From positions 10,984 to 74,983 of the forward strand of contig WOYX01000024.1 of assembly GCA_011620595.1 (NCBI GenBank): a stretch of DNA of 64,000 nt. The letters are read 5' to 3'. Source of the stretch: Bacteroidales bacterium. Its GTDB lineage: Bacteria; Bacteroidota; Bacteroidia; Bacteroidales; VadinHA17. Below the pieces are notes generated by a model. It was given only the letters and a program-made list of their open reading frames with translations, was not told the origin of the DNA and made no database searches. Within the stretch, counting starts at the first letter, position 1. Each line of letters begins with the position of its first letter. This document shows, piece by piece, positions 4,725-50,138 of the stretch. A program made the position numbers and the translations under genes.

Positions 4725-4847
4725 AACAATTTGACATCTGCTTTTCTCTAATTCTCCTGAATGTGTGTTGATTTAGGTGGTTGCTTCAGGAAGGGAAATG
4801 AGCTGGTAGCTTTTAAAACTCTATTTAATAACTAAACCAATCCAAAA

Positions 4848-7916: not shown

Positions 7917-7927
7917 TATGAGGTCAG

Positions 7928-9397
7928 ATGAAAAGGAATCTTATTAAAATCAGCATAATTGTTCTGGCTCTGTCAATGATGACCTCATGCCAGAAGTGGT
8001 TGGATATTGATTACAATCCGAATGCCATTACCGAATCGCCAGCTATTGATGAAGGCGTATATCTTACCGGCGTTGAGTCAGAATGGGCTCAGCAGGCCGT
8101 AACTTTTTTTGTATGGTGGAACGGCATGAAGGACTGGTTGCTCTGGTATGCACCCGATGGCACCCAGGGATATGAGACCAGGTTTGAGATCTCAACCGAT
8201 TACGGTATTGAGATATGGGGAGCTTACTCGGGCGCACTGATGCATTCCAATGCCCTTCTTGAAAAGGCAAGGGAAAACCGAAACAAGAGGTTCCAGGGTA
8301 TCGGGGCAGTGATCACCGCATGGCATTGGTTCAATATGGCGGATTATTATGATCAGGCGCCACTGGATGAAGCGCTGAAAGGCGCGGAATTTCCGCATCC
8401 TGCAGTCAACACCCTTGAGGAGATATATACTCATGCCAATGCCCTTCTTGATGAAGCCATTCAGTGCTTTACAGCCAGTGATCCGGGTGACCTTTTGCCT
8501 ACTGCAGCACAGGATTATATATACGGGGCTGATTATGCGAAATGGACCCGTCTCTGCTATTCTCTAAAGGCACGCTATGCTATGAGGCTGACCTATCTCC
8601 CGGGAAAAACACCCGCCGGACAGGCAGACCTGGTATTGCAGTATCTGGAAAACGGCATGCAGAACAATGATGACATGTGCGCATGGGAACACCTGGCAAG
8701 CCTGCAATATGACAGCTATATCTATGAAGAGTCACTTTATGACTACTCCGCAGCCGGCATGACACCCTCGATATATATTGTCAACCTCCTTAACAGCCTT
8801 AATGATCCAAGAAGAATGATCTTCTGGACTGAGGCCGAAGTCGGAGGTTATATCGGTCACCGTAGCGGTACCTCTTCAATAGCCGGTGCCAGACCCTCAA
8901 GGTGGTCAATGAGTTACTGTACCCAAACCTACCCTGATATGATAATGATGTATTCCGAGAACCTGTTCCTGAAGGCTGAGGCACATGCACTCAAGGGTGA
9001 ATACGGCCCTGCTGAGACAGCTATGAAGGCAGGTATCAGGTCTGATATGGAATATCACGGTGTGGCTGAGGCTGACATTTTAAGTTACCTGGCACAGCCC
9101 TTGCTGACCATGCCTACAAGCGTTGAAGAAGCTCAGGAATTGATAATGACACAGAAGTACATCGCCAATACCTTTGAGACTACTGAATCATATTTTGATT
9201 TCATACGGACAGGTTATCCGAGGCTTGATTTCACCACAATCAACCAGGTAATCAATGTCAACACCTTCCCCAGAAGGAATCCCTATCCGCCGGACGAGAT
9301 AGAGAAGAACCCGTCAATTGCAGCACTAGGGCAGCCTGACTATTTCCTGAAAGGGACTGCATGGGACACCAAGCCCTTCAGTTGGAGGTCCAAATAG
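7928..9397 (+). CDS. SusD/RagB-family nutrient-binding outer-membrane lipoprotein
   Basis: Lipobox LALSMMTSC followed by QKWLDIDYNPN, a typical SusD-like N-terminus. 489 aa, immediately downstream of SusC. Confidence 0.85.
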   Translation: MKRNLIKISIIVLALSMMTSCQKWLDIDYNPNAITESPAIDEGVYLTGVESEWAQQAVTFFVWWNGMKDWLLWYAPDGTQGYETRFEISTDYGIEIWGAYSGALMHSNALLEKARENRNKRFQGIGAVITAWHWFNMADYYDQAPLDEALKGAEFPHPAVNTLEEIYTHANALLDEAIQCFTASDPGDLLPTAAQDYIYGADYAKWTRLCYSLKARYAMRLTYLPGKTPAGQADLVLQYLENGMQNNDDMCAWEHLASLQYDSYIYEESLYDYSAAGMTPSIYIVNLLNSLNDPRRMIFWTEAEVGGYIGHRSGTSSIAGARPSRWSMSYCTQTYPDMIMMYSENLFLKAEAHALKGEYGPAETAMKAGIRSDMEYHGVAEADILSYLAQPLLTMPTSVEEAQELIMTQKYIANTFETTESYFDFIRTGYPRLDFTTINQVINVNTFPRRNPYPPDEIEKNPSIAALGQPDYFLKGTAWDTKPFSWRSK

Positions 9398-9419
9398 TTA
9401 ACAGTTCTGATCCTAAAGG

Positions 9420-9453
9420 CCGCTGATGGGCTTTTCATTGGCGGCTTTTTTTT
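9420..9453 (+). terminator. Rho-independent terminator after SusD
   Basis: Stem CCGCUGAUG (9420-9428) pairs with CAUUGGCGG (9436-9444): 9 bp including two G-U pairs, with a 7-nt loop. A run of 8 T follows at 9446-9453. Confidence 0.65.
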
Positions 9454-9480
9454 ATATATATTAATACAAATACCCGAATC

Positions 9481-12180
9481 ATGAAGAGAGTCAAAAAGGA
9501 GCTGTTTATCCTGTTAATTGTAATGATGGTTACAGTGCTTGCGGTCCCTGCCGGTGCACAACAGTCCCTCCCCGGAGGGTATGATGCCTTTGAGTACAGA
9601 AACCTGGGAGCTTTCCGTATCAGTGCATGGGTGGGAGCAGTGGCTGTGCCAGAGAATCCGGGAGAGAAACACAGGTACACATGGTACGTCGGACCACGCA
9701 GCGGTGGTGTTTGGAAGACCGTTAACAACGGAACCACCTTTGAATGTGTATCTGACCAGTTCAATACCAGCGCCGTGGGTGACATTGCCGTGGCGCCTTC
9801 AGACCCGGAGACAGTATGGGTCGGCACCGGCGACGCATTCAATGCCAGGTCCTCTTACTACGGCAACGGTATCTGGAAGTCGACCGATGCAGGCAAAACA
9901 TGGAAGAACATGGGACTGTCCGGGACACAGCATATATCCCGTATCATGATTCACCCCACTGATCCCAGGACAGTCTGGGTGGCTGCCATGGGAAGCCTCT
10001 GGTCTGACAATGAGGAGAGAGGCGTCTTTAAGACCACAAACGGTGGCGGGAGCTGGGAGAAAATACTTTATATCGATGACAAAACCGGCGTAATTGACCT
10101 GGTTGTCAATCCTGTTGACCCGGATATCCTTTACGCCGCCACATACCAGAAAGTACGCACTGCATGGACGTATGAGCCCGGAGGGGAGAAGAGCCGCATC
10201 TACAGGAGCGTTGACGGGGGCAGGAGCTGGGAGGTGCTTTCCGGGGGGTTGCCGGAAGGTCCCCTGGGGCGAATAGGTCTTGATATTCACAGGGCAAACC
10301 CTGATATCCTGGTTGCGGTAATCCAGAACCTGAATGTCAAACCGGGCGTTGATCCGGATGCACCTGTCCCATTTGACGAGTTCACCGATCACTCATTTGA
10401 CAACCTTATTGGCGGAGAGGTATATATCACACATGATGGAGGGAATAAGTGGAAGAGGATCAATGACCCTGAAAAAACAGACGTCAGCGGCAAGGCCGCC
10501 TACAGCTTCAACAGGATAGCCATTGATCCTTTTGATCCTGATAAAATATATGTCGTGGGTGCCGGGATGTACTATACTCTTGACGGTGGAAAGAGATGGC
10601 CACTGGGCCGTCAGCAGGACCGTTTCCAGAGCAATTTCGGAGACAACAGGGTTTTCTGGATCGATCCGAAAGACCCAAGGCACATGATGCTTGGCTCCGA
10701 CGGTGGTATCTATGCCTCCTGGGACGGCGGGCTCACAATGAACCACTATTATCATATTCCTCTCGGAGAGGTTTATCATGTGGAGGTTGATATGGAGACG
10801 CCTTACAACATATACATCGGGCTGCAGGATCATGAGACATGGAAGTCTCCTTCCAACGGATGGTCAGGAGCGGTAACACCTGCCGACTGGGTTATTACCG
10901 GAATGTGGGACGGGATGTATTCAAAGGTTGACCCCGAGACCAACAGGTACATATACTATACGACCCAGTTCGGGTCACACCATAGGGTTGACCAGGCTGC
11001 AGGAGAGAGGGTGCCGATAACACCCGTAGCAGAGGATGGCAAACCGTTTTACCGTTTTACATGGACTACCCCTCTTGCTCTCTCTCCGCATAACAGCGCC
11101 ATCATATATACGGGTGCGCAGATGGTACTGCGCTCGCTTGACCGGGGTGATCACTGGGAAGAGATCAGTCCTGACCTGACTGACAATGACCCTGACAAGA
11201 TACACGGCAAAGGGCACATTCGCTACTGTACCATCACAACCCTGGCCGAGTCACCCGTCAGGGCAGGCATAATATGGGCAGGAACGGATGACGGGCATGT
11301 GCAGGTCACCACTGACCATGGCCATACATGGAGCGATGTGACTGCCGCGATGGCCGAAGCAGGCGCCCCTGAAAAGATGTGGGTCAGCAGGGTCTTCCCG
11401 TCAGCCTTTGATGAGGCCACGGCATACGTCTCAAAATCAGGTTACACCGATGACATTATGGAGCCGCATATTTATGTGACGGGTGACTTCGGGGTTACCT
11501 GGAAGAGGATAACGACAGGTCTTCCCGATTACCCGGTCAGCGTAGTTATCGAAGACCGCAGAAATCCCAATCTTCTTTTTGCCGGTAATGATAACGGCGT
11601 ATGGGTTTCACTTAGCAGGGGAGAGATTTGGGAGCCGTTGAGGGCCAACATGCCACCGGCAGTGGTGCGTGACCTGATGGTTCATCCGCGCGAAAATGAC
11701 CTGATAGTCGGTACATACGGAAGAGCGGCATGGATAACTGACATCTCGCCTTTGCAGCAGGTTACACCTGAGATCATTCAGAAACCCCTCCATCTTTTTT
11801 CCATTGAACCCAAGCCACAGATGAACTTCTCACAGCAGGCTACCTGGGGCAATTACCACATGACGGGGAGCAACCACCTCAATTCACCCAATGAACCTAA
11901 CGGGCTCGAGATATGGTATTATCAGTCGGGTGAACCAAAGGATGAGCCTGTGATTTCTATTACAGATGCTTCCGGCAACCAGGTTTTTGAGAGAAAGATA
12001 AAGAGTGGTAAAGGCATAGGGAAGATATGGTGGAATACCATGAGAGCACGTCCGGGTGTCTATACTGTCACCATCGCCTGCGGCAATTTCCGAGAGAGTA
12101 CCACCGGCATCGTCACGGAGAGATGGCAGTGGCCTGTATTGAATTTCAATCCGGGAGAAAAAGCAACGTGGAAAAGATGA
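9481..12180 (+). CDS. Secreted BNR/Asp-box repeat protein, paralogue of 2346..4724
   Basis: Signal peptide. Asp-boxes STDAGKTWK, TTNGGGSWE, SVDGGRSWE, THDGGNKWK, TLDGGKRWP, SLDRGDHWE, TTDHGHTWS, TGDFGVTWK. A block GGVWKTVNNGTTFECVSDQFNTSAVGDIAVAPSDPETVWVGTGDA is collinear with GGVWKSVNEGTTFEPVFDEMPTASVGDIAIDPKNPDVVWVGTGEA in the first copy. Confidence 0.75.
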   Translation: MKRVKKELFILLIVMMVTVLAVPAGAQQSLPGGYDAFEYRNLGAFRISAWVGAVAVPENPGEKHRYTWYVGPRSGGVWKTVNNGTTFECVSDQFNTSAVGDIAVAPSDPETVWVGTGDAFNARSSYYGNGIWKSTDAGKTWKNMGLSGTQHISRIMIHPTDPRTVWVAAMGSLWSDNEERGVFKTTNGGGSWEKILYIDDKTGVIDLVVNPVDPDILYAATYQKVRTAWTYEPGGEKSRIYRSVDGGRSWEVLSGGLPEGPLGRIGLDIHRANPDILVAVIQNLNVKPGVDPDAPVPFDEFTDHSFDNLIGGEVYITHDGGNKWKRINDPEKTDVSGKAAYSFNRIAIDPFDPDKIYVVGAGMYYTLDGGKRWPLGRQQDRFQSNFGDNRVFWIDPKDPRHMMLGSDGGIYASWDGGLTMNHYYHIPLGEVYHVEVDMETPYNIYIGLQDHETWKSPSNGWSGAVTPADWVITGMWDGMYSKVDPETNRYIYYTTQFGSHHRVDQAAGERVPITPVAEDGKPFYRFTWTTPLALSPHNSAIIYTGAQMVLRSLDRGDHWEEISPDLTDNDPDKIHGKGHIRYCTITTLAESPVRAGIIWAGTDDGHVQVTTDHGHTWSDVTAAMAEAGAPEKMWVSRVFPSAFDEATAYVSKSGYTDDIMEPHIYVTGDFGVTWKRITTGLPDYPVSVVIEDRRNPNLLFAGNDNGVWVSLSRGEIWEPLRANMPPAVVRDLMVHPRENDLIVGTYGRAAWITDISPLQQVTPEIIQKPLHLFSIEPKPQMNFSQQATWGNYHMTGSNHLNSPNEPNGLEIWYYQSGEPKDEPVISITDASGNQVFERKIKSGKGIGKIWWNTMRARPGVYTVTIACGNFRESTTGIVTERWQWPVLNFNPGEKATWKR

Positions 12181-12416
12181 GGACCATAAGGCGGATTCAT
12201 CGTCTTACCGCCTCTTTTCTCTCTGTTGCCCTGTTGCTGGTTGCTATCTCGGGCATCCTCCTTCACAGGCCTCTCGCTGCTGGTCTTTACGGTCACAGGG
12301 ATATGGCTCCGCTACCGGTCACGGAATAACATCAAAAAGGCGTAATACTCTTTATACTTCCAGTGATTTGTAAACAAAGGCTGAACCGGGATAATCTACA
12401 ATTGGTCTATTGATAA

Positions 12417-14021
12417 TCAGTTGTTAAAGTCGGGTTTAAGATAGTAATAGGCTGTAGTCGAGAAATCGATTGTGGTCTTCACCCAGTGCCACATCTCGAG
12501 GTCAACTTTCAGTGAATCTGTAAACGGAATGGCATCGAGTATCCGGTAACGCATGTTGACACTCATGCCGGGATGAAAGTTTCCGTATCCTGCTGGCTGT
12601 GCAATGAGCGGGTGATCAAAATGTTCCGGCCGGCACCAGGCATAGCCGAAATAGTCCTCGGTACCCGTCCCGAACGATGAGGGGAACATCTCGCCGTCGA
12701 CATAGATTTTCTCGTCGCCTTCACCCCACCAGGCGTCCGCAGTGTTGAATATTGTGATTGCATCACCGGCATAGACTCCTCGTCTGCTGAGCTCCGTTAT
12801 GTTTACATCCCGGTGCAATCCCGTGCCCCCGGTGGCCACTGCGCCGGCAGTCTCGAAATCCGGATACTCCTGCCACGATGCTCCGAAGTGCATTGAGGAT
12901 TCATCCCACCTGTAGGGTGTAAGTGTTACTTCCGCGCTGATGCCGATACTGTCCGGGGTTCCGTTGAAGATGCTTACAGTGCAGCTGTCGCGGAAGGGCA
13001 TGAGCCGGTAGGAGCTTAATGTGCCTCCGGGATCGGTGGCTGTGAAGAGGGTCCGGTAGCTGTTGTATGAATAACCTGTGCCGAAGAAATCACCGACAGG
13101 CACCTCAGCCGTTATCCGGCCGTCGAAGGAAAGACGGATTACTGCTCCTTTGAGTGCCGCTGCCGTATCAACGGCTGAGAGCGACATGGTGAAACGGCTG
13201 AGGGCAAGGCCCTGCCCGGCGATCGTGACGGAACATTCAGTGCCTGGAGCAAAAACACCTTCGGCGGATCTCTTCATCTCATCATTAACTCCGTTCCCGT
13301 CCCCGCCACCGGCGAGCAGGTATGATACACATTCGGCTATGGCAAGAGTATCTGATATGAAGGTTTCACTCCTGGCAGACTCAACTCTTGTGCCCTCCTC
13401 GTACAGTCTCGTGCCGATATTGTAGTATATTGAAGGTGTTCGTCTTTCAGGTGTAATAAGAATAGAATCGTTTTCCAGGGTAATTCTGCATTTTTCAGAG
13501 AAGGGGATGGGAAGATAGAGGTTATATCCCCGGCGCTGCGGTTCAGTCAGGGGCGAGACTGAGCTGCTCAGCGGCCAGGGTGCCAGGAGGCCCTCACCCA
13601 GCAGGGCCGGGGCCATGCCTTCAATGACAGGCTCTGCCACGTCATCGATGTAGACCCTGATATATGAGTTCAGGGCGTTGGCGTTGCCGAAGGTCATCCA
13701 CCAACGGACTACTGCACCCGGACCCTCTGCCTCAAGCATGACATACTCGCGCCGGCCGTCAGTAACCTCCTCCCTGATAAAGTGCGTATAATCATTGTTT
13801 GCAAACCATCCGGCACTGTCAGGGTGGATGCTGAGTCTGTCATAGGAGCTGAACTGCACCAGCCGGTAGCCCGGATCGGGGAACCGGGTCATTGTCTCCG
13901 GGTCGGCCATCTCCTTCAGCAGCGACCTGAAAGTGACCACTTTGTCATTTCTGCATGAGGTAGTTGCAAGCAGGTAAAAGATCCCGGCCGCGATCACGAT
14001 TAACGGTACTCTCTTTTTCAT
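12417..14021 (-). CDS. DUF2961 / glycoside hydrolase family 172 protein (lipoprotein)
   Basis: Family motifs WWGEGDEKIYVDGE and GTGTEDYFGYAW. The start is placed at the internal ATG at 14021 (MKKRVPLIVIAAGIFYLLATTSC, signal plus lipobox) rather than the ORF-track start at 14123. Confidence 0.75.
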   Translation of the reverse strand: MKKRVPLIVIAAGIFYLLATTSCRNDKVVTFRSLLKEMADPETMTRFPDPGYRLVQFSSYDRLSIHPDSAGWFANNDYTHFIREEVTDGRREYVMLEAEGPGAVVRWWMTFGNANALNSYIRVYIDDVAEPVIEGMAPALLGEGLLAPWPLSSSVSPLTEPQRRGYNLYLPIPFSEKCRITLENDSILITPERRTPSIYYNIGTRLYEEGTRVESARSETFISDTLAIAECVSYLLAGGGDGNGVNDEMKRSAEGVFAPGTECSVTIAGQGLALSRFTMSLSAVDTAAALKGAVIRLSFDGRITAEVPVGDFFGTGYSYNSYRTLFTATDPGGTLSSYRLMPFRDSCTVSIFNGTPDSIGISAEVTLTPYRWDESSMHFGASWQEYPDFETAGAVATGGTGLHRDVNITELSRRGVYAGDAITIFNTADAWWGEGDEKIYVDGEMFPSSFGTGTEDYFGYAWCRPEHFDHPLIAQPAGYGNFHPGMSVNMRYRILDAIPFTDSLKVDLEMWHWVKTTIDFSTTAYYYLKPDFNN

Positions 14022-14191
14022 TCGGTTATTTTGTTTATAATTCAATGATCGAATGGAACTTGCATGAAGTAAGATAATCATAGTCTTATCTGAGTGGATG
14101 CTCATGCAGGTATCTTTGGGCATACTTCGGGACTAAAGTTACTCATTCGGGCAAAATATTTAAATTGCAATCCGGATTAAAAGCAACAGAG

Positions 14192-15394
14192 ATGAAAAAA
14201 GTCGTGGTTTTGCTGGCAGTGGTCAGCATGATGGCCTCATGCAGGCCCGCATCAGAAGGATTTCTCCAGACGGATGGCAGGCACATTGTCAACGGAGAAG
14301 GTGATTTTGTTTTATTGAGGGGGATTGGTCTGGGAGGCTGGATGCTGCAGGAACCTTACATGCTTAAGCTCTCAGGGGTGGCTCCCGCACAGTATGATAT
14401 AAAGAACAGGATAGCTGCGCTGACGGGAGAGGAGAGATGTGCGGAATTTTACGATGCCTGGCTGGCCAACATGGTCACGCGCAGGGATATCGACTCGCTT
14501 AAGGCATGGGGATTTAATTCGGTGAGGCTCGCCATGCACTACAACCTGTTTACCCCGCCTATTGAGGAAGAGCCCGTGGCAGGGGAAATTAGCTGGCTGG
14601 ATAAAGGCTTTGTGATGACTGATTCCCTGCTCAGCTGGTGCACGGCGAATGAGATTTACCTTATTCTCGATCTCCACGCGGCACCGGGAGGGCAGGGAAA
14701 TGACATTCCCATTGCTGATGTCGACACCACAAAAGCAAACCTGTGGGAGAGTGAGCTGAACCGGAAAAAGACCGTTGCTCTCTGGGGCAGGCTTGCAGAG
14801 AGGTACAGGGATGAACCGTGGATTGGTGGCTATGACCTGATAAATGAAACGAATTATCCTCTTGAAGACAACAGCGAGCTGCGCAGGCTCTTTATCGAAA
14901 TCACCGGGGCCATCCGGGCCGTTGACACCAACCATATCATTTTTATCGAAGGCAATAACTTTGCCACTGATTTCCGGGGAGTGACGCCTCCCTGGGATGA
15001 CAATATGGTCTACAGCTTTCACAAGTACTGGAATCCCACAACTGTTGAAACCATTCAGAAGTATCTTGATCTCAGGGATGAATACAATGTCCCGCTCTGG
15101 ATGGGTGAATCAGGCGAGAACAACAACGAATGGTACCGGTCTGCCGTGGAGCTTTTTGAGGCTGACAGCATAGGGTGGGCATGGTGGACGCTCAAGAAGC
15201 TCGGTTCCGAAAGCGGAATCATGAATGTCACCATGCCAGACGGTTACCAGCAGATCATCAATTACTGGAAGGGTAACGGGCCGGCCCCTGCACCTGATGA
15301 AGCACACCGTACGCTTATGCAACTCACTGAAAACATACGGATTGAGAACTGCGATGTCAACTACGGCGTCCTGACGGCGTTGTTTGGACGGTAG
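14192..15394 (+). CDS. Glycoside hydrolase family 5 enzyme (lipoprotein)
   Basis: GFNSVRL, the acid/base motif in GGYDLINETN (NE), FHKYW, and the nucleophile region WMGESGE. The start is placed at the ATG at 14192 (MKKVVVLLAVVSMMASC), because the track start at 14165 is a TTG. Confidence 0.75.
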   Translation: MKKVVVLLAVVSMMASCRPASEGFLQTDGRHIVNGEGDFVLLRGIGLGGWMLQEPYMLKLSGVAPAQYDIKNRIAALTGEERCAEFYDAWLANMVTRRDIDSLKAWGFNSVRLAMHYNLFTPPIEEEPVAGEISWLDKGFVMTDSLLSWCTANEIYLILDLHAAPGGQGNDIPIADVDTTKANLWESELNRKKTVALWGRLAERYRDEPWIGGYDLINETNYPLEDNSELRRLFIEITGAIRAVDTNHIIFIEGNNFATDFRGVTPPWDDNMVYSFHKYWNPTTVETIQKYLDLRDEYNVPLWMGESGENNNEWYRSAVELFEADSIGWAWWTLKKLGSESGIMNVTMPDGYQQIINYWKGNGPAPAPDEAHRTLMQLTENIRIENCDVNYGVLTALFGR

Positions 15395-15405: not shown

Positions 15406-15552
15406 CAGTCGGCAGTCAGCAGTCGGCAGTCGGCAGTCGGCAGTCGGCAGTCGGCAGTCAGCAGTCAGCAGTCGGCAGTCGGCAGTCGGCAGTCAGCAGT
15501 CAGCAGTCAGCAGTCGGCAGTCGGCAGTCGGCAGTCAGCAGTCGGCAGTCAG
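15406..15552. repeat. Heptanucleotide tandem array, 21 units of CAGTCGG / CAGTCAG
   Basis: Counted unit by unit. The pattern of the G and A variants is G A G G G G G A A G G G A A A G G G A G A. It begins 12 nt after the GH5 stop and is intergenic. Confidence 0.95.
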
Positions 15553-15575
15553 CATCCTCACAACCTAAATACCTG

Positions 15576-15614
15576 ATTCTTAATTCTTAATTCTTAATTC
15601 TTAATTCTTAATTC
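15576..15614. repeat. Second heptanucleotide tandem array, 5 full units of ATTCTTA plus a partial unit
   Basis: Read directly. It starts 23 nt after the first array ends and is AT-rich, whereas the first array is GC-rich. Confidence 0.9.
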
Positions 15615-15769
15615 CTCCCACTACTGCCTCCCCCCGCAGACTGGCTGCCCGCTGGAATGACCCACCGGGTCATTCATTCACGCTCGGCACTCTACTGGCC
15701 TCATTCATAAGTATAAATACCAATGGAAAAATAGGCTAAAAGCCCGTTCCGGCCCTCAGAAGTCCTTGC

Positions 15770-15777
15770 TAATTTTG
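15770..15777 (+). promoter_or_regulatory. Candidate Bacteroidota sigma-A -7 box (TAATTTTG, consensus TAnnTTTG)
   Basis: Exact match to TAnnTTTG, 30 nt upstream of the ATG at 15807. Confidence 0.4.
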
Positions 15778-15806
15778 AGCTTCCCAAAAAGGGCAACTAC
15801 GGAATT

Positions 15807-16556
15807 ATGGAAGATCTCTATTCAAGGCTTATGCAGGATGTCCGTTTCGAGGAGGGACTGAAGGCATGCATGAACTGCGGCATATGCACCGGCATCTGTC
15901 CGGCAGCCGAATATTACAGCTACGACCCGCGCAGGGTGGTGGACCTTGTTCAGACACGCAACAATGATGTTATCAGGGAGTTGCTGAAGAGTGAGACCAT
16001 CTGGTACTGCGGTCAGTGCATGAGCTGCAAGACCCGGTGTCCCAGGGGCAACACCCCCGGGATGGTGATCATGGCGCTGCGCAAACTGTCGCAGGAGCTG
16101 GGTTACTTTACCGACTCCGAGAAGGGGAGACAGCAGTTTGCCATCAAGAGAACGGTGGGCGACAATGTGCTGAAGCACGGGTATTGCATTGTCTCCTATG
16201 ACGTTGACCCGGCCACACACCCTGAGCAGGGTCCGGCATGGGAGCATTACTACAACCATCTCGACGATTCGCTGGCGAGGTTGGGTGGTGAGCTGAACGG
16301 CAAGGAGGGGCCCACGCGCAAGATAGCCGATGATGTGCTTGACGAACTTAGAAGCATCTTTGAGGTGACGGGCGGCAAGGATCTCTACGATGCCATCGAG
16401 GAGGCTTCGGAACTGAAGGCGGAGGAGATGGGCATGGAGTTTAAGAAGGAGGGCAGGGACTTTGAATACTTCAGGCATGTAGTGTCAGCCGACAACGGCA
16501 CTCATCAGTGTGAAACGGAAGACGTGAGGAGGGATATATATGAAACCAGAAGGTAA
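15807..16556 (+). CDS. HdrC-like 2x[4Fe-4S] subunit (heterodisulfide-reductase C family)
   Basis: Two cluster motifs in HdrC spacing: CMNCGICTGICP and CGQCMSCKTRCPRGNTP. Confidence 0.75.
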   Translation: MEDLYSRLMQDVRFEEGLKACMNCGICTGICPAAEYYSYDPRRVVDLVQTRNNDVIRELLKSETIWYCGQCMSCKTRCPRGNTPGMVIMALRKLSQELGYFTDSEKGRQQFAIKRTVGDNVLKHGYCIVSYDVDPATHPEQGPAWEHYYNHLDDSLARLGGELNGKEGPTRKIADDVLDELRSIFEVTGGKDLYDAIEEASELKAEEMGMEFKKEGRDFEYFRHVVSADNGTHQCETEDVRRDIYETRR

Positions 16557-17601
16557 GAAGCGCATCTGGGCCGAGTACCAGAAGGAGATACCGGACGACC
16601 ACTTCTTCTATGTCAGGTCGTGCATCAGGCAGACATTCTTTGCAGGGTCGGAACAGCATTTCCTGAAGATCCTGCGGGAGGACCTGGGCAAGGATGTCTT
16701 CGAGGACCCGCGTCACACCACCTGCACGGGCATCGGGTATCACGGTGACGTGGTCCCCTTTGAGACTATCCAGACAGTGGTGGCGCGTCATTTTGCACTG
16801 GCCACTGAGGCCGGGTACAAGCATATTGCCATATCGTGCGTCACCTCTTTCGGCATCTACTCTGAGATACTGGAGACCTGGAAACACTTTCCTGAAACTC
16901 TGGCCCGCACGCGTGAGGATCTCTACAAAGCCACGGGCCGCACCTTTGAGGTGCCTGAGACCATCTCGCATGCCAGTGACATAATATACAAATTCAGGGA
17001 TGAGATAGCCCGCAAGGCAAAGTATAACCTTGTTGACATCAAAACCGGAAAACCCCTGAAGGTGGTGGAGCACATCGGCTGTCACTATTCAAAGATGTTT
17101 CCGAAGTACGGCGTCGGCGGGGCCGAATTCCCTCATGTTCTGACAGGCATGATAGAGGCATGGGGCGGCGATGTCATTGACTACCCGGAGCGGCGCCACT
17201 GCTGCGGCTTTGGCTTCAGACAGTACCTCGTGCAGGCTAACAGGGGATATTCGCTCTTTGCCTCACGCAAGAAGTTTGAGTCGATGGAGCCCTACCAGCC
17301 TGATCTCATCATTGCCAACTGTCCGGGATGCACCATGTTCATGGACCGCTGGCAATACACGATAAAGGAGATAGACGGCATCACATACGGTGCTGACGGC
17401 CAGGGGATACCTGTTCTGACTTATGAGGAGGTTGCCGGACTGGTGCTTGGATACGATCCGTGGGATATAGGCCTGCAATACCACAATGTACAGTCGTTGC
17501 CACTACTTCGCAGGATGGGTATCAAGGCTGATCCGGCACGGCGTTTCCTGGCAAAGGACGGCACACCGTTGCCCGAGCCTGCCAATCTTATCAACGGATG
17601 A
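16540..17601 (+). CDS. HdrB-like CCG-domain subunit
   Basis: The C-terminal CCG domain is intact (GCHYSK ... RRHCCGFGFRQ ... IANCPGCTMF). The N-terminal copy is degenerate (TTCTGIGYHGD ... ISCVTSF). The gene overlaps the HdrC-like gene by 17 nt. Confidence 0.7.
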   Translation: MKPEGKKRIWAEYQKEIPDDHFFYVRSCIRQTFFAGSEQHFLKILREDLGKDVFEDPRHTTCTGIGYHGDVVPFETIQTVVARHFALATEAGYKHIAISCVTSFGIYSEILETWKHFPETLARTREDLYKATGRTFEVPETISHASDIIYKFRDEIARKAKYNLVDIKTGKPLKVVEHIGCHYSKMFPKYGVGGAEFPHVLTGMIEAWGGDVIDYPERRHCCGFGFRQYLVQANRGYSLFASRKKFESMEPYQPDLIIANCPGCTMFMDRWQYTIKEIDGITYGADGQGIPVLTYEEVAGLVLGYDPWDIGLQYHNVQSLPLLRRMGIKADPARRFLAKDGTPLPEPANLING

Positions 17602-18629
17602 AGGAGAAGAGAAAGCATGTAATTGTAGCCGGTGGCGGTGTGGCTGGCATGGAAGCCGCAGGGTCGCTGGCGGAGATGGGCATCAGGGTTACCCTTGTTG
17701 AAAAGGGAGAGGACCCCGGCGGCCACCTCCTGCAGTGGCACGCGCTGTTCCCCGGACGCAGGCCGGCGGAGGAGGTAAGGAAGTATCTCAGGAAGAGGAT
17801 CGCCCATGAGAACATAAATGTAATCACCAGGACCACAGTTGAAAAGGTCAGGCATCACGGCCATGAGATCATTGCAGATCTCTCAGGAGGCACAGAGGAG
17901 AGGGCTGATGCCCTTATTGTGGCAACCGGCTTTGACCTCTTTGATGCACACCGTAAGGAAGAGTACGGATACGGAATATATGACAACGTAATCACCTCGG
18001 CTGATCTTGAGGAGATGTTCAACGGGAAGAGGGTTGTCAGGGCTGACGGCTCCGTCCCCTCGCGTATCGGCTTCATCCACTGCGTGGGCTCACGCGATGA
18101 GAAGGTAAATAACAATCACTGCTCAAAAGTATGCTGCGTCACGGCTGTGAAGCAGGCTATAGAGGTGCGCAAGCTTCTTCCGGAATCTGAGGTCTTCTGT
18201 TTCTACATGGACATGAGGATGTTTGGTCCATATTATGAAGAGCTCTACCGTGAGTCGCAGGAGGTTCATAACGTCAACTACATGAGGGGTAAGGTCTCCG
18301 AAGCCTCTGTCAATATCAACAACAGGCTGGTTATTAAGGTGGAAGATACCCTTGCGGGCCGGCCGCTGAAGATGGAGCTCGACCTGATGGTGCTGATGGT
18401 GGGTATGGAGATGTCGAAGCCGGGGGCACGTCTGGCAGAGGCGTCGGGACTGAACACGGGCATCAACAGGTTTCTTGAGTCTGCTGATCAGCACTACGGA
18501 ACCAACAGGAGCGGGGTGGCAGGTATTTTTTATGCCGGCACATGCACTGCTCCCATGAACATCACCGACACAATTTCACATTCGCGTTCAGCTGTGGAAG
18601 AGACGGTAAGATATCTGGGCGGCAGATGA
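17598..18629 (+). CDS. Short HdrA-like FAD/[4Fe-4S] oxidoreductase (no ferredoxin or inserted domains)
   Basis: Dinucleotide-binding fold VIVAGGGVAGMEAAGSLAE. HdrA cluster signature CVGSRDEKVNNNHCSKVCC. Only 343 aa. Its start overlaps the upstream stop as ATGA. Confidence 0.7.
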   Translation: MKEKRKHVIVAGGGVAGMEAAGSLAEMGIRVTLVEKGEDPGGHLLQWHALFPGRRPAEEVRKYLRKRIAHENINVITRTTVEKVRHHGHEIIADLSGGTEERADALIVATGFDLFDAHRKEEYGYGIYDNVITSADLEEMFNGKRVVRADGSVPSRIGFIHCVGSRDEKVNNNHCSKVCCVTAVKQAIEVRKLLPESEVFCFYMDMRMFGPYYEELYRESQEVHNVNYMRGKVSEASVNINNRLVIKVEDTLAGRPLKMELDLMVLMVGMEMSKPGARLAEASGLNTGINRFLESADQHYGTNRSGVAGIFYAGTCTAPMNITDTISHSRSAVEETVRYLGGR

Positions 18630-18985
18630 GTGAGCAGAAGGCAAACAGGTTCGGTTTCGCCATTAACCGCAGCAGAGCCATCAACTATGACACCTCTGAC
18701 CGAAAGGTGAGGGAGTATGTCACTATGCGGGAGCCCAGCTTCAGACTCTGTTTTGCCTGCGGAGGATGCACCGCCACCTGCACTGCGGGGCAGCATGCCT
18801 CCTTCAACCTGCGGAGGATGAATACCTACATTCGTCGCGGTGAGATAGATTCTCTCCGTGAGGAGGTAGCACGCTGCATGCTGTGCGGCAAATGCCTGCT
18901 CGTCTGTCCGCGCGGGGTCAACACCCGCAACGTGGTTGCAACGACTGCCGAAGCATTAAGAAAACTGGACAGAAATGAACTCTGA
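18626..18985 (+). CDS. Small 4Fe-4S ferredoxin-domain protein
   Basis: CFACGGCTATCTAG and CMLCGKCLLVCPRG. The start is placed at the ATG at 18626 (MSEQKANRF), which forms an ATGA overlap with the HdrA-like stop. The track start at 18542 lies inside the preceding gene. Confidence 0.6.
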   Translation: MSEQKANRFGFAINRSRAINYDTSDRKVREYVTMREPSFRLCFACGGCTATCTAGQHASFNLRRMNTYIRRGEIDSLREEVARCMLCGKCLLVCPRGVNTRNVVATTAEALRKLDRNEL

Positions 18986-20870
18986 TATCTTCGTCTGGCC
19001 GTTTAATTTAGGACTCTATTTCATACTTATATACAGTGTTGTAAGGAGTACCATATGGTTCCGCAACCTGTCACGGGCAGACAAGCTGCGGCTGCAGCGC
19101 GGTTTCTTCGGCATGCCCTTCATGCAGAGCATCAGGGAGATATTCATGGAGAGCCTGCTGCATCGCCGGATCTTCAAAAAGAATCCCGTACTGGGTTACA
19201 TGCACATGAGCCTCGCTTTCGGTTGGTTCCTGCTGATAGTATTCGGTACCATTGAGGCAGACTTTTTCGGGGAGCGACATCTTAATCCGCCATCCCATGC
19301 CATCTTCTTCCGCTGGTTCAATCCCGAACACGGGGCGTCCGGACTGGCTGCCATCTACGGTCACTGGATGGATTTCCTCCTTATCTTCATACTGTCAGGA
19401 CTGCTGCTGGCCGTTGTCAAGAGGTTTATCCCCGGCATGATGGGTATGAAGAAGACCACAAGGCATACCTGGAGTGACCGTATTGCATTGATAAGCCTCT
19501 GGCTCATCTTCCCCTCACGGCTGCTGGCGGAGAGCTTCACCTGTGGAGCCCACGGCAACGGAGGCTTCCTCACCGGCAATCTGGGCGCTGCGCTGGCATC
19601 ATTTCTCCCGGCAGCTGACATTGCCCCCTACTTCTGGTGGCTATACTCCCTTTCACTGGGAACGTTTTTCTTCCTTCTGCCGGTAACGCGCTACTTTCAC
19701 ATACCCGTGGAGCTGCTCCTCATATTCATGCGCAACTCCGGCATCACCACGGCCGACCGGTGGTCTGCCTATACGGAGGTACAGACCCATGCCTGTTCTT
19801 CATGCGGCATCTGCATCAGTGTCTGCCAGATGAGCCGGGCGGCGGGCATAAACGACATGCAGTCGGTGTACTTTGTAAAGGGTCTGAGAAATGAAAGGGA
19901 TATTGCTGCAATCACAGCCAACTGCCTGATGTGCGGACGTTGTGATGAGGTTTGTCCAGTAGGCATTGAGCTCGGCCCGTTGCGCCTCATTGAGAGGCGT
20001 CAGGGGGAGAGAGAGGTAACCAAACTGAAATTCTTTGACAGATACGGGCTTATGCGGCGAAGGGAACACATTGAGAGAGAGCCGACACAGTCGTACAGTT
20101 ACCTGACGCCCGAAGAGGAAAAGCCGGCAGACGTGCTCTTCTTTGCAGGCTGCATGACCCATCTGACTCCGTCGGTTATTGCAGCCATGAAGAAGATAAT
20201 GGATAGTGCAGGGGTGAGGTACCGTTTTATGGATGAGCAGGGAGGAGTCTGCTGCGGCAGGCCTCTGATGCTTGCCGGCAGGGACAGGGAGGCGCGGGAG
20301 CTTATCAACCATAACTCTGACATCATCTGGAAGTCGGGAGCAAAGACGCTTGTGACATCATGCCCCATTTGCTACAAGGTATTCAGGGAGAGCTATTACC
20401 TTGAGGCAGAGGTGATGCATCACTCCGAATTCATCAACCTCCTCATTGAGGAGGGGTCGCTGCGGCCGGGTTACCTTCATCGCAGGGTAGTCTATCATGA
20501 TCCCTGTGACCTTGGCCGCGGATCGGGCATATACGACGAGCCCAGGGCCGTCATCAGTTATGTGGCCGAACTTCAGCCGGTACCGGAGGAGAGATCCATG
20601 TCGCTATGCTGCGGCGGCAGCCTGGGAAACCTTACGCTTTCATCGGGAAAACGTTCCCTGATAGCTGCTGATGCTGCCAGAATCCTGACACAGTCGGATC
20701 CTGACGAAGTGATAACTTCCTGCCCCCTCTGCAAAAAAACCTTTGCCAAGGCCACAGAGACCAGGGTGAGCGATATCGCCGAACTGGTTGCCGCAGCCCT
20801 CCCGAAGCCTGTCAGGAAGACGAGGGGCCGGGCCTCACTTGCTGCCGTCAAAACGGTGGCTGACGGTTGA
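18975..20870 (+). CDS. Membrane-anchored Fe-S oxidoreductase: N-terminal polytopic domain fused to an HdrC-like 2x[4Fe-4S] module and two CCG domains (HdrD/DsrK/HmeD-like)
   Basis: About 5-6 hydrophobic helices in the first ~250 aa. These are followed by CSSCGICISVCQ, CLMCGRCDEVCPVG, FFAGCM...VCCGRPL...TSCPICY and YHDPCDLGRG...LCCGGSL...TSCPLCK. The gene overlaps the upstream gene by 11 nt. Confidence 0.7.
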   Translation: MNSDIFVWPFNLGLYFILIYSVVRSTIWFRNLSRADKLRLQRGFFGMPFMQSIREIFMESLLHRRIFKKNPVLGYMHMSLAFGWFLLIVFGTIEADFFGERHLNPPSHAIFFRWFNPEHGASGLAAIYGHWMDFLLIFILSGLLLAVVKRFIPGMMGMKKTTRHTWSDRIALISLWLIFPSRLLAESFTCGAHGNGGFLTGNLGAALASFLPAADIAPYFWWLYSLSLGTFFFLLPVTRYFHIPVELLLIFMRNSGITTADRWSAYTEVQTHACSSCGICISVCQMSRAAGINDMQSVYFVKGLRNERDIAAITANCLMCGRCDEVCPVGIELGPLRLIERRQGEREVTKLKFFDRYGLMRRREHIEREPTQSYSYLTPEEEKPADVLFFAGCMTHLTPSVIAAMKKIMDSAGVRYRFMDEQGGVCCGRPLMLAGRDREARELINHNSDIIWKSGAKTLVTSCPICYKVFRESYYLEAEVMHHSEFINLLIEEGSLRPGYLHRRVVYHDPCDLGRGSGIYDEPRAVISYVAELQPVPEERSMSLCCGGSLGNLTLSSGKRSLIAADAARILTQSDPDEVITSCPLCKKTFAKATETRVSDIAELVAAALPKPVRKTRGRASLAAVKTVADG

Positions 20871-21008: not shown

Positions 21009-21566
21009 ATGAAATCAATAATCAGGATAACAGGCGTATTTGCCCTTACCGTGCTTCTAGGCATAACCTCATGCAAGCAGGAGGGTTCATCATCGGCCGA
21101 TGTCGGCAATCAGGGCGGGAGTGACAAGATAGCTCTCAACGACGGTGATGTAGTTCTCAGGATAGAAGATGCTGATCTCCTCCAGGTAGATTACAATCCG
21201 CAGTATAACACTGCTGAGTGGCAGTTCACCGTTGAGGAGCCCGGACGTTATGATGTATGGCTTTCCAGTCTTACCTGTGACACTGCCCATCTCCGCTATG
21301 AGGATAATGTCATCATCACGGCCGGAGACACCAGGTTGACCAAGAGGCCTGTGGGCGATCAGATTGTGAAGGATGACAAGAGTGTCACTGAGCCCTGGTA
21401 CAGGGCCGATTCACATATGGGATCAATTTTCTTCAGCCAGCCGGGTGAATACCAGATACAGGTTATCAGCGACAGGGTGGAACCGCATCCCTCGGATGTC
21501 TCCAGGCTGAGTGTTGATAAGCACACGCTTATCAACTCAGTGATCCTTAAGCCGAAGGTCAACTGA
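21009..21566 (+). CDS. Hypothetical lipoprotein (possibly a beta-sandwich or carbohydrate-binding-like fold)
   Basis: The start is placed at the ATG at 21009 (MKSIIRITGVFALTVLLGITSC, signal plus lipobox). No catalytic motif was recognised. Its stop overlaps the convergent purL stop by 8 nt. Confidence 0.5.
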   Translation: MKSIIRITGVFALTVLLGITSCKQEGSSSADVGNQGGSDKIALNDGDVVLRIEDADLLQVDYNPQYNTAEWQFTVEEPGRYDVWLSSLTCDTAHLRYEDNVIITAGDTRLTKRPVGDQIVKDDKSVTEPWYRADSHMGSIFFSQPGEYQIQVISDRVEPHPSDVSRLSVDKHTLINSVILKPKVN

Positions 21567-25501: not shown

Positions 25502-26830
25502 TCAGTTACCGAATCTGGGATTGACTATATTGTTGTATATCGAACCGAAAGTATATGTCAGACCTATGCCGGTCCCGATCTCATAGCCCGTTGCCTGTTC
25601 CCTCAGCCTCAGGAGTCTCTCGGCTTCCGACAGCTCTCCCTTTCTCAGGCTGAGCTGGTCATTAATGCGTGCCGCCTCGAGGTTGAGAGTGAGGGAGAGT
25701 CCCTTGAATATTCTTACGCGGGCAAAGAGGTCTGCGGCTACCATGTTTTTCGATAAGTCATGGAAGTAGTTAAGTCCCCGGAGCGAGAAGTAGATCGAAC
25801 CCCATTTCTTCTGCACCTGGTATGCGACCCTGATCTGATGTACGAAAAGATTCTCTCTGGTCTTGTTGTAAATGGTGGTGTCTGCGTAATTACTGTACTG
25901 GTAACCAATGCTGTAGAGGAACCTGAGCTGACGGTGGGTAGCCTCGGCATAGGGAAACAGATCATACTCTATTGAGGGCATGATCGAAGTATTGAAATCG
26001 TAGTTCTCGGATGTCGATGAGTTCATCTCCCAGATCAGTCCGGCGGACCAGTGGTCACCGAGGCTCTTTACCAACAGGTTTTCCAGTCTTTCGTAGCTTC
26101 TGAGGTAGGTTGTATCAAGATCTTCCTCAATGAATCTCTGTTTCGTATAGCTCTGGTCAAAATCGATCTCCAGCTTGAGGTCAGGGGTTACTTTTGTAAC
26201 TCTCAGCGAGTTTCTCAGGTTCATTCTCTTGTATGACTCTTCTGCATTATACTGCGGGCTTGTTGAGATCTCAAAGACCCAGTTTCTCCATCCGTCGATG
26301 ACCTCTTCCTGCTCGATGGCACTGCCGTGTGTTATGTCTATCTCATAAATTACCGGTGTCCTGCTTGCGAACCTCAGCAGGCCGGCCTTGAGAAGATTGG
26401 TGCGACGCTCCCTGATCTCCGTTGAGGTCTCGTAGGGGTTGCTCATATAGGTCAGGGTGTCGTCCATTCCCGCAAAAATGTCCATCCCGTGAAAAACGTA
26501 AGTATAAAGGTTGCCGCCATTGCCTGAGTTCTGCCGTGTGACAAGTACATATACCTGTGCTTCCCTTACATCCCTGACATAGTTTATCCACGGAATCTCC
26601 TGGCGGGTATAGCTCATGTCGCAGCTGCTGCAGTCGATGAACACCCTGGCGGCATCCTGTCTCAGGTTGATGGCAGGTTGTATATCTTGTTCCCCGGGGT
26701 TACCTGATGCAGGAGGGTCATTTTGCCTCAGGTTTCCTACGGGGGGAGGATTATCCTGGGCGGCTGCGGCGACTGAAAAAAGTGTTGTAAGTAGAAAAAA
26801 AAGCAGTAGTCTGATGTTGTTTTGAATCAT
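25502..26830 (-). CDS. Hypothetical outer-membrane (beta-barrel-like) protein
   Basis: Signal peptide (LLLFFLLTTLFSVAAAAQ), a low-complexity Pro/Asn/Gln linker, and alternating hydrophobic strands towards the C-terminus. No family was recognised. Confidence 0.45.
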   Translation of the reverse strand: MIQNNIRLLLFFLLTTLFSVAAAAQDNPPPVGNLRQNDPPASGNPGEQDIQPAINLRQDAARVFIDCSSCDMSYTRQEIPWINYVRDVREAQVYVLVTRQNSGNGGNLYTYVFHGMDIFAGMDDTLTYMSNPYETSTEIRERRTNLLKAGLLRFASRTPVIYEIDITHGSAIEQEEVIDGWRNWVFEISTSPQYNAEESYKRMNLRNSLRVTKVTPDLKLEIDFDQSYTKQRFIEEDLDTTYLRSYERLENLLVKSLGDHWSAGLIWEMNSSTSENYDFNTSIMPSIEYDLFPYAEATHRQLRFLYSIGYQYSNYADTTIYNKTRENLFVHQIRVAYQVQKKWGSIYFSLRGLNYFHDLSKNMVAADLFARVRIFKGLSLTLNLEAARINDQLSLRKGELSEAERLLRLREQATGYEIGTGIGLTYTFGSIYNNIVNPRFGN

Positions 26831-29450: not shown

Positions 29451-29472
29451 GCAGGCAGGGAAGAGCGAATTG

Positions 29473-30198: not shown

Positions 30199-30252
30199 GT
30201 CAGTGGTTATTTTTCAGATCAGGACAAATATCTTCTATCCCGTTCATTATGT

Positions 30253-49985: not shown

Positions 49986-50050
49986 ATTCAGATAATTTAT
50001 TTAACATCTACTCTAAGTAAATCAGGCACTCCAGACCCTTCAGGCAGATA

Positions 50051-50124
50051 ACTCCAGTTCACTCTGGTTCACTCCAGTTCACTCTAGTTCACTCTAGTTC
50101 ACTCTAGTTCACTCTAGTTCACTT
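50051..50124. repeat. Decanucleotide tandem array, 7 units (ACTCCAGTTC, ACTCTGGTTC, ACTCCAGTTC, then 4x ACTCTAGTTC) plus a partial unit
   Basis: Read directly. It lies in the divergent intergenic region between the namZ start (49985) and the NlpC/P60 start (50229). Confidence 0.95.
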
Positions 50125-50138
50125 CGAACTTAAAAAAG

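Follow-up and report, generated by a model that had tools for sequence, protein, structure and literature searches.

A widespread, uncharacterised Hdr-like cassette of Bacteroidia with a membrane anchor and a possible link to sulfite and sulfonolipid metabolism

Heterodisulfide reductase (Hdr)-like enzymes have been described in methanogens and in dedicated sulfur oxidisers; the systems of the latter are termed sHdr. A cassette of this kind, made of five overlapping open reading frames (ORFs), g1 to g5, is located on the plus strand at positions 15807-20870 of a 64-kb stretch of contig WOYX01000024.1 from a Bacteroidales bacterium (hereafter the window, that is, the whole stretch of DNA analysed). 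Related to Hdr, sHdr and EtfD/EMO, it represents a variant that is widespread but uncharacterised, and its possible link to the metabolism of sulfite and sulfonolipids can be tested. Because the core of an sHdr system is present and the other features of sHdr are missing, it appears, judged from homology and gene order, to be a third, membrane-anchored architecture among Hdr-like enzymes, apart from sHdr types I and II. Such cassettes are widespread in anaerobic, carbohydrate-degrading Bacteroidia, including abundant human-gut genera, and have been annotated only generically.

A first-pass annotation, made from the sequence alone, had reported these five genes in this position and order, with an overlap at every junction, and it was right on both counts. 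The genes are as follows:

15807-16556, plus strand, 249 amino acids (aa): g1, HdrC1-like subunit with two [4Fe-4S] clusters
16540-17601, plus strand, 353 aa: g2, HdrB1-like putative catalytic subunit, C-terminal CCG motif complete and N-terminal one non-classical
17598-18629, plus strand, 343 aa: g3, short HdrA-type flavoprotein with flavin adenine dinucleotide (FAD) and a single [4Fe-4S] cluster, without ferredoxin domains
18626-18985, plus strand, 119 aa: g4, ferredoxin with two [4Fe-4S] clusters, a truncated HdrC2-type electron carrier
18975-20870, plus strand, 631 aa: g5, EtfD/EMO/HdrDE-type membrane Fe-S protein by its predicted model; five transmembrane helices at about residues 1-255, two-cubane-cluster domain at 274-327, noncubane-cluster domain with two complete CCG motifs at 393-586

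Read from the sequence, the junctions from g1/g2 to g4/g5 overlap by 17 nucleotides (nt), by 4 nt (ATGA), again by 4 nt (ATGA) and by 11 nt, in line with the proposed translational coupling. The start of g4 is taken as the ATG at 18626, which is internal to a longer mechanical ORF. The domain reading of the first-pass annotation had relied on motifs, and the Pfam, NCBIfam and PDB assignments agree with it for all five proteins, although none of the five reaches any NCBIfam equivalog cut-off.

The soluble subunits were compared with a Hyphomicrobium-type reference locus of sHdr type I (L082), in which the genes are ordered DsrE-C1-B1-A-H-C2-B2-hyp-LbpA with TusA nearby (hyp, a hypothetical protein), and with a cyanobacterial cluster from Picosynechococcus. 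The products of g1, g2 and g3 are each most similar to C1, B1 and A of the reference locus, respectively, and stand in the same order, and on these alignments they are distant homologues of sHdrC1, sHdrB1 and sHdrA. Both g1 and g4 are ferredoxins with two 4Fe-4S clusters, and HdrC is the best NCBIfam family for both. In the case of g1 (Pfam Fer4_8/17/9), the HdrC score of 78 bits is far under the equivalog cut-offs of 270-350, while BLAST gives 49.5% identity to the cyanobacterial C1 and 43% over 95 aa (E 2.5e-30) to the Hyphomicrobium-type sHdrC1, both C2 subunits being weaker. Full-length alignment is obtained between g2 and methanogen HdrB (PDB 9sfi_C, E 9e-29), and BLAST places it with the cyanobacterial B1 (42% identity) and sHdrB1 (26%, E 1.4e-31) ahead of sHdrB2 (E 1e-9). 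The N-terminal CCG motif of g2 is altered, such that the usual CC pair is TC and CxxC is CxxS; as the motifs (T/S)C...YHG and C(V/G)TSF are common to both B1 references, this alteration can be regarded as a signature of B1.

The third protein consists of the thioredoxin-reductase-like core of HdrA with the cluster motif CxGSRD...C...CC. It matches the crystal structure of Hyphomicrobium denitrificans sHdrA (6tjr_A) over its full length (E 5e-55, 33% identity), which upholds its initial description as a short, sHdrA-type protein without ferredoxin domains, and it also matches the corresponding core of methanogen HdrA (E 8e-60, 39% identity). By BLAST, it is 46% identical to the cyanobacterial A and 33% to sHdrA (E 1e-61). 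Its placement within the HdrA family is less clear: g3 is not nested with Hyphomicrobium sHdrA and lies outside that branch, as had been left for phylogeny to decide, in a neighbour-joining tree that is star-like and carries no support values. An exhaustive search with g3 recovered many clusters of short HdrA proteins at 36-52% identity, compared with 32% for Hyphomicrobium sHdrA. The small fourth gene had been taken for the counterpart of sHdrH, which does not hold: g4 carries Pfam Fer4 families and has its best BLAST match in the ferredoxin core of sHdrC2 (39% over 74 aa, E 6e-11), and the cassette contains no homologue of sHdrH. Invariably, g4 lies between g3 and g5, overlapping both in most loci.

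The fifth protein comprises an N-terminal helical region of about 255-265 aa, followed by a ferredoxin domain and two CCG domains. Its best NCBIfam family is TfrB (134 bits, cut-off 385). The membrane domain on its own gave no NarI match in Pfam and only a weak one to DUF5671, and sequence and profile searches of the PDB with g5 reached no NarI-type chain. An initial AF2 model built from 13 close sequences was poor (predicted local distance difference test, pLDDT, 56) and was discarded in favour of one built from a 46-sequence alignment of two clades that are 41-45% identical. The latter (pLDDT 84.7, predicted template modelling score 0.80) has five long helices before residue 255, and its single full-length match in a Foldseek search of the PDB is the EtfD/EMO of Mycobacterium smegmatis, 9ojn (E 3.8e-19, TM 0.64/0.56), whereas the lower matches are HdrB chains that cover the C-terminal domain only. 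The profile of g5 likewise finds 9ojn_A as its best PDB sequence (E 1.6e-24), even though identity in the structural alignment is only 16%. EMO has been described as a chain of three domains, namely a five-helix cytochrome b domain of the NarI family (up to residue 260), an HdrC-like two-cubane domain and an HdrB-like noncubane-cluster domain, resembling HdrDE fused in one chain, and it passes electrons of the electron-transfer flavoprotein (ETF) to (methyl)menaquinone (bioRxiv 10.64898/2026.08.18.745454). All three of these domains are found in the single chain of g5 by the model together with the 9ojn match. On this predicted structure, g5 is an EtfD/EMO/HdrDE-type protein with a NarI-type membrane domain, in agreement with the NarI- or HdrE-like membrane tether that had been proposed. 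Its interpretation as a fused sHdrC2/B2 pair has to be abandoned, since BLAST at E < 0.01 matches g5 with neither sHdrB2 nor the cyanobacterial B2, and its weak matches to C1 and C2 are limited to the ferredoxin domain.

All 18 cysteines of g5 are invariant across the two clades, including all ten CCG cysteines, as in catalytic HdrB and HdrD. The suggested check of the membrane domain for conserved heme-ligand histidines gives candidates: His63, His77 and His242, all near the predicted cytoplasmic face, are invariant across both clades, whereas His102 and His119 are conserved within the clade of the window only. The motif P-x-T-R-Y-x-H-I of g5 resembles what we take to be the C-terminal heme-ligand motif of NarI. 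Since three histidines are invariant across clades, it is plausible that g5 binds at least one proximal heme b.

The cassette had been called an orphan. A scan of genomes, one per GTDB species, returned at least 558 confirmed stretches, a number to be read as a count of candidates because one of the two search patterns was generic. The best 80 of these all come from uncultured Bacteroidales metagenome-assembled genomes, many labelled Rikenellaceae or Rikenella; the order g1 to g5 is colinear in 78 of them, the two exceptions being truncated contigs, and all five genes are present in 73. A metagenome scan seeded with distant short HdrAs added 80 loci with GC contents of 25%-64%, every one of them colinear and 48 complete, and g5 identity to the window falls to 39% among these loci with gene order unchanged. 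By exact-sequence look-up, hosts include Alistipes spp., Butyricimonas virosa, Geofilum rhodophaeum and Candidatus Coprenecus, as well as metagenome-assembled genomes of Lentimicrobiaceae, Prolixibacteraceae and Rikenellaceae, and the RefSeq names of their cassette proteins are generic. Butyricimonas belongs to the same GTDB family as Odoribacter. Many of the metagenome-assembled genomes are, by their record titles, of sulfidic origin; the sites include Zodletone spring, a meromictic lake, a sulfidic cave and sediments. Hundreds of candidate Bacteroidia species thus carry the cassette, always with the same gene order, and this fixed order, together with the wide range of hosts, identifies it as an old, conserved module of Bacteroidia rather than an orphan. 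In the literature on Hdr in Bacteroidales or Alistipes, or on Hdr with cysteate synthase, no prior description was found.

Conservation extends to the cofactor ligands. Across 69-81 orthologues per gene, the cluster-binding cysteines are 100% conserved (97-100% in g3): the eight cluster cysteines and C127 of g1 are invariant (70 orthologues), as are all eight cysteines of g4, the relevant cysteines and histidines of g2 are 100% conserved, and C162, C175, C179 and C180 of g3 are 99% conserved. Because the genes overlap, their order is invariant down to 39% g5 identity and the cofactor ligands are conserved, the five products probably act as one unit in the form of a membrane-bound complex.

The gene neighbourhood provides a concrete lead on the substrate. 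The setting of the cassette between a GH5 (glycoside hydrolase family 5) gene and purL, which had been found puzzling, is inherited in the lineage as far as purL is concerned (75 of the 80 genome loci); the upstream GH5 gene is seen in close relatives only. About 140 nt 3' of g5 and on the same strand lies a small lipoprotein gene (185 aa in the window), which is adjacent in 69 of the 80 genome loci and absent from other clades; its product is only 30-90% identical within the clade, i.e. fast-evolving, and has no Pfam or NCBIfam match. A different arrangement is found in a sister clade, whose g5 proteins are 50-69% identical within the clade and about 41% identical to that of the window. Here g5 is directly followed, on its own strand, by a cysteate synthase gene. 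This holds for 8 of 10 metagenome loci and for all seven further lineages that were looked up, and in two loci (L170, L171) the gene overlaps g5. The extended operon runs in the order MarR regulator, five-gene cassette, cysteate synthase and sometimes a SulP-family anion transporter, and is represented by the following loci:

L163-L172; L101, L107, L111, L131, L134, L137, L138, L155: sister-clade loci with the extended operon

Four of the genes after g5 score 462-471 bits against TIGR03844 (cut-off 325); the other assignments rest on 58-100% identity to a scored gene, or on a PALP gene of 428-436 aa in the same position. The MarR/OhrR-like regulator lies upstream of the cassette in five of the seven lineages and six metagenome loci. 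The SulP gene follows cysteate synthase in three of the seven lineages (L165, L169, L170), and its best NCBIfam family, DauA, stays under the cut-off.

Cysteate synthase converts O-phosphoserine and sulfite to cysteate in the first step of sulfonolipid synthesis, and has been characterised in Chryseobacterium and Alistipes (PMC11211663). The gut families in which sulfonolipids have been reported are Rikenellaceae (Alistipes) and Marinifilaceae (Odoribacter) (PMC11525784). The origin of sulfite in strict anaerobes is not addressed in this literature on Alistipes and Odoribacter (PMC11211663, PMC11525784), the former of which never uses the word sulfite. It is the operon linkage of cysteate synthase in the sister clade that makes sulfite a candidate product of the cassette. 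Another explanation of this linkage, a CoM (coenzyme M)-like thiol-sulfonate cofactor whose disulfide is reduced by the complex, is unsupported, with no other cofactor-pathway enzyme conserved nearby (comDE was not searched), and was set aside because sulfonolipids already explain the need for cysteate. In two sister-clade loci, etfAB and an acyl-CoA dehydrogenase gene are found on the opposite strand just past SulP (L169 11143-11851, L170 9878-11818). They are worth noting because g5 resembles the ETF-oxidising EMO, and are probably an ordinary butyryl-CoA dehydrogenase/Etf set.

Taken together, homology and neighbourhood suggest, with somewhat less than even confidence, that the cassette encodes a menaquinone-linked complex, independent of the lipoate-binding protein LbpA, which oxidises reduced sulfur to sulfite and in the sister clade feeds sulfonolipid synthesis. 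The complex would consist of an sHdr-type core (C1, B1 and a short, probably dimeric HdrA), a small C2-type ferredoxin and an EtfD/EMO-like anchor, and the latter, by way of one or more proximal hemes b, would connect the flavin/Fe-S chain with the menaquinone pool. The quinone link is proposed because the predicted fold of g5 equals that of EtfD/EMO, which reduces (methyl)menaquinone, and because three histidines on the cytoplasmic side of its membrane domain are invariant across clades. At the non-classical site of HdrB1, thiol-bound or free reduced sulfur, such as sulfane or persulfide derived from sulfide, would be converted to sulfite, by the same chemistry that is held for sHdr in sulfur oxidisers, here without a lipoate-binding carrier protein. 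Electrons would pass from B1 via C1, the FAD of HdrA, g4 and g5 to menaquinone, and the quinol may be re-oxidised by fumarate reductase or by cytochrome bd; L167 has a cyd operon close to its cassette. In the sister clade, sulfite would be taken directly by the co-translated cysteate synthase. For the clade of the window the same chemistry is assumed, and cysteate synthase, if present, would be encoded elsewhere in the genome.

A number of observations weigh against this proposal. Standard potentials are about -116 mV for HSO3-/HS-, -270 mV for S0/HS- and -74 mV for the menaquinone/menaquinol couple; the first two give about -40 mV for HSO3-/S0, so that on these values the oxidation of zerovalent sulfur to sulfite with menaquinone is near equilibrium, and it would have to be pulled by sulfite consumption and quinol re-oxidation. 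The complete CCG motifs of g5 could mean that it holds a second active site rather than serving as a simple electron conduit. With regard to B1, g2 is only 26% identical to the Hyphomicrobium-type sHdrB1 and is devoid of its N- and C-terminal extensions. Cysteate synthase is absent from the 64-kb window and is not adjacent to the cassette in the clade of the window (80 loci), in Alistipes (L126) or in Butyricimonas (L141). Moreover, the sulfur-carrier machinery of sHdr is missing, as had been noted for the flanks of the window: tblastn searches with LbpA, DsrE, sHdrH and the Hyphomicrobium-type hypothetical protein gave no match in the window, nor in 160 loci taken with flanks of 8-10 kb (L001-L162). 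For TusA, which was never a query, none was seen among the clustered conserved neighbours, the Pfam assignments of the larger ORFs of the window and the Pfam-labelled neighbours in L163-L172, and no lipoate-assembly or lipoate-ligase gene was found among conserved or Pfam-labelled neighbours.

The same evidence can be set in other ways. The complex may run in the direction of HdrDE as a menaquinol-dependent reductase of (hetero)disulfides or polysulfides, with electrons passing from quinol through g5 to some low-molecular-weight or protein disulfide at its classical noncubane site and/or at B1, possibly for thiol homeostasis or the repair of oxidative stress. This is unlikely on balance, yet it is favoured by g5, whose architecture is that of HdrDE fused in one chain and whose ten CCG cysteines are those of the catalytic proteins, the characterised EMOs being degenerate distally. 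The MarR/OhrR-like regulators upstream of sister-clade cassettes fit such a role, and so do the thioredoxin-fold/AhpC-TSA lipoproteins and rubrerythrin encoded near the cassettes of Alistipes and Butyricimonas, except that TlpA-like lipoproteins are very common paralogues in Bacteroidia and their proximity may therefore be due to chance. Menaquinol, at about -74 mV, is however a poor donor for typical disulfides, and a disulfide reductase would leave the tight coupling to cysteate synthase unexplained and the sHdr-type B1, C1 and A core without a clear role. That coupling would be retained if sulfite were formed reductively. Thiosulfate or an S-sulfonate (R-S-SO3-) would then be split between its two sulfur atoms, at a noncubane site of the Hdr type, into thiol or sulfide and sulfite for cysteate synthase, with electrons from the quinol pool or another donor. 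S-S bond cleavage is what Hdr chemistry consists of, thiosulfate is available in the gut, and a SulP-family transporter follows cysteate synthase directly 3' of the cassette in three lineages. Nevertheless, this route seems distinctly improbable, as SulP is confined to 3 of 7 lineages with its substrate not assigned (DauA under cut-off), homology points to the oxidative sHdr, and the couple of thiosulfate with sulfide plus sulfite lies at about -400 mV, a value so negative that menaquinol would require an input of proton-motive force.

It may also be asked whether the cassette is part of a canonical, LbpA-dependent sHdr system for dissimilatory or detoxifying sulfur oxidation, with the genes for LbpA, lipoate assembly and sulfur transferases located elsewhere in the genome. 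The homology of the C1-B1-A core and the sulfidic origin of many host genomes would suit this, and the search for carrier genes covered the window and flanks of 8-10 kb. Yet it is given a lower probability still, because LbpA, DsrE and sHdrH are unmatched in about 160 loci, and because sHdrH and sHdrB2 are replaced here, not merely displaced. According to two studies, lbpA is an inevitable companion of sHdr genes and sulfur transferase genes are found with them in every case, the carrier genes being clustered with hdr (PMC6067878, PMC11094781), and the passages of a GTDB survey that list 20 phyla with sHdr do not contain 'Bacteroid-' (PMC11094781). The least probable of the alternatives is a flavin-based bifurcating or confurcating complex, in which electrons would be divided at the flavin of HdrA. 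One branch would lead via g4 and g5 to menaquinone, at high potential, and the other to a low-potential acceptor; alternatively, B1 and quinone would be the two ends. HdrA is the bifurcating subunit of methanogen HdrABC, the core of g3 is 39% identical to it, and two electron branches, C1/B1 and g4/g5, leave the flavoprotein. On the other hand, the low-potential branch of methanogens runs through inserted and C-terminal ferredoxin domains, which g3 does not have, and no partner of the ferredoxin, NAD(P)H or hydrogenase type is conserved beside the cassette. The formation of sulfite by menaquinone-linked oxidation is retained as the working proposal.

The sequences surrounding the cassette contain further features:

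2346-4724 and 9481-12180: BNR/sortilin-repeat proteins
4848-7916: SusC-like TonB receptor
7928-9397: SusD-like protein
12417-14123, minus strand: DUF2961 protein
14165-15394: GH5 gene
15770-15777, plus strand: TAATTTTG, candidate Bacteroidetes-type -7 promoter element, 37 nt 5' of the g1 ATG
21009-21566, plus strand, 185 aa: conserved downstream lipoprotein with lipobox ...GITSC, membership of the system uncertain
25502-26830, minus strand, 442 aa: large ORF, no Pfam match at the thresholds used
46170-48500, plus strand, 776 aa: large ORF, no Pfam match at the thresholds used

The regular expression TAnnTTTG has TAATTTTG as its sole match in 15560-15810. This sequence fits what we take to be the Bacteroides -7 promoter consensus, and a promoter function would follow from that resemblance only. 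A general scan for promoters and terminators was uninformative: sigma-70-like sites numbered 8 versus 4.6 expected, Bacteroidia promoters being outside the models of the scan, and terminator-like sites 3 versus 4.5 expected, one of them inside g5. Between GH5 and the cassette there are two arrays of heptamers, CAGTCGG repeated 21.3 times (15406-15554, 93% matches) and ATTCTTA repeated 5.6 times (15576-15614, 100%), which generate a spurious ORF of 68 aa; phase variation of a downstream promoter is one conceivable role for them. The upstream region 2346-15394 has the appearance of a polysaccharide utilisation locus. On the far side of purL, the 442-aa protein is conserved in 14 related loci. 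Genes for the recycling of amino sugars and cell wall are found at 27867-31948 and 48729-54517, including a GH18 protein with a type IX secretion sorting tail, a GntR/FCD regulator, SIS-domain (MurQ/GKRP-like) proteins, a BadF-type ATPase, a NamZ exo-muramidase, an NlpC/P60 peptidase and an enolase-superfamily (MR/MLE) enzyme.

If sulfite is the product, the cassette would supply the hidden sulfite step of sulfonolipid synthesis in strict anaerobes, and the immunomodulatory sulfonolipids of gut Alistipes and Odoribacteraceae might be produced under its control. In its widest form, the idea that the cassette is the missing anaerobic sulfite source of Bacteroidia, an assimilatory Hdr-type oxidase that works without a lipoate carrier and controls these lipids, is a possibility that must be regarded as doubtful. 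It would also imply that sHdr-type chemistry can run without a lipoate-binding protein, which bears on the debate about the mechanism of sHdr. Even if the sulfite reading is wrong, major gut bacteria would still possess a conserved Hdr-type complex linked to quinone, and it would be worth studying.

Compared with known systems, the cassette lies outside the characterised families with a known substrate, as had been supposed, since it departs from canonical Hdr, sHdr, Qmo and DsrMK alike. QmoABC was rejected: the cassette has one HdrA-like gene only, the domain order of g5 is membrane domain first, NCBIfam qmoC, with a cut-off of 300, gives only 49.6 bits for g1 and 24.8 bits for g4, and no apr genes are in the flanks. 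DsrMK(JOP) was rejected on a DsrK score of 59.6 bits (cut-off 400), with no dsr gene among the conserved neighbours. With the methanogen systems HdrDE and HdrABC, the cassette shares the Fe-S modules, g5 being like HdrE and HdrD fused, and g2 and g3 align with HdrB and the HdrA core. It differs from HdrABC in an HdrA without ferredoxin domains and in NCBIfam scores far under the equivalog cut-offs (HdrA2 244.6 versus 1100, HdrB 139 versus 450 and HdrC 78 versus 270-350 bits), and we know of no CoM/CoB (coenzyme B) metabolism in Bacteroidia.

A search of a plasmid collection gave two matches, one of which is the cluster on a plasmid of Picosynechococcus sp. PCC 7003 (NZ_CP016476.1; L081, 7065-12805). 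Its order is C1-B1-A-C2-B2, and among annotated sequences from outside Bacteroidia nothing closer to g1-g3 was found (42-50% identity). It has no sHdrH or LbpA either. It is followed by a flavoprotein of the SQR family, whose assignment is weak (83 bits, cut-off 525) and serves as a lead only. In contrast to the cassette, its C2 and B2 are separate, soluble and full-length, without a membrane anchor, and g5 is unlike its B2.

For g5, the nearest known relative is EtfD/EMO, which is its best PDB match by fold and by sequence (9ojn) and shares the order of NarI-like five-helix domain, HdrC-like two-cubane domain and HdrB-like noncubane-cluster domain; the domain boundaries are almost identical to those of Syntrophus aciditrophicus EMO (SaEMO). 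The differences are the 16% identity, with a membrane domain undetectable by sequence, and the partner, which is an HdrA-type flavoprotein with a ferredoxin and not EtfAB: the conserved partners of g5 are g1-g4, and etfAB is not a conserved neighbour. The EMO of M. smegmatis (MsEMO) has the proximal heme only and SaEMO three hemes, and the distal noncubane cluster of the characterised EMOs is degenerate (bioRxiv 10.64898/2026.08.18.745454). The three histidines that are invariant across clades in g5 fit the former arrangement of one proximal heme and not the latter, while the distal noncubane site of g5, unlike that of both characterised EMOs, has its full set of cysteines.

The closest comparison remains that with sHdr, an O2-independent route from zerovalent sulfur to sulfite (PMC12345210). 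Type I is defined as shdrC1B1AHC2B2 (with lbpA) and type II as shdrC1B1AHB3-etfAB-emo (PMC11094781). The likeness to sHdr that the first-pass annotation perceived is valid for the core C1-B1-A and fails for the accessory parts H, B2, LbpA and DsrE. With type I, the cassette has in common the order C1-B1-A followed by a C2-type ferredoxin, a short HdrA with FAD and one [4Fe-4S] cluster, the non-classical N-terminal cluster motif of B1 and the fact that each of g1-g4 is closest to its own sHdr counterpart. Identity is only 26-43%, however, and C2 is reduced to a 119-aa ferredoxin core, while B1 lacks the terminal extensions. The slot of sHdrH (282 aa), between hdrA and hdrC2 in the reference locus, is occupied by g4, and a membrane protein replaces the soluble sHdrB2; LbpA, lipoate-assembly, DsrE and TusA genes are lacking at the locus and among its neighbours. 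In addition, the hosts are anaerobic, saccharolytic Bacteroidia and not known sulfur oxidisers. Since sHdrH, sHdrB2, LbpA, DsrE and TusA are all missing at about 160 loci, the cassette belongs to neither type. Type II resembles it in the wiring proposed for it (PMC11094781), by which an sHdr core is combined with a protein that fuses HdrC- and HdrB-type parts and reaches menaquinone by an EMO-type route, but requires sHdrB3, etfAB and emo in one syntenic cluster, and the cassette contains no etfAB, sHdrH or LbpA. In type II, sHdrB3 is said to bind one noncubane cluster only, compared with the two complete CCG motifs of g5, and the roles of g5 are spread over sHdrB3, EtfAB and EMO (PMC11094781), whereas in the cassette g5 alone joins the fused C/B module to the predicted EMO-type membrane domain.

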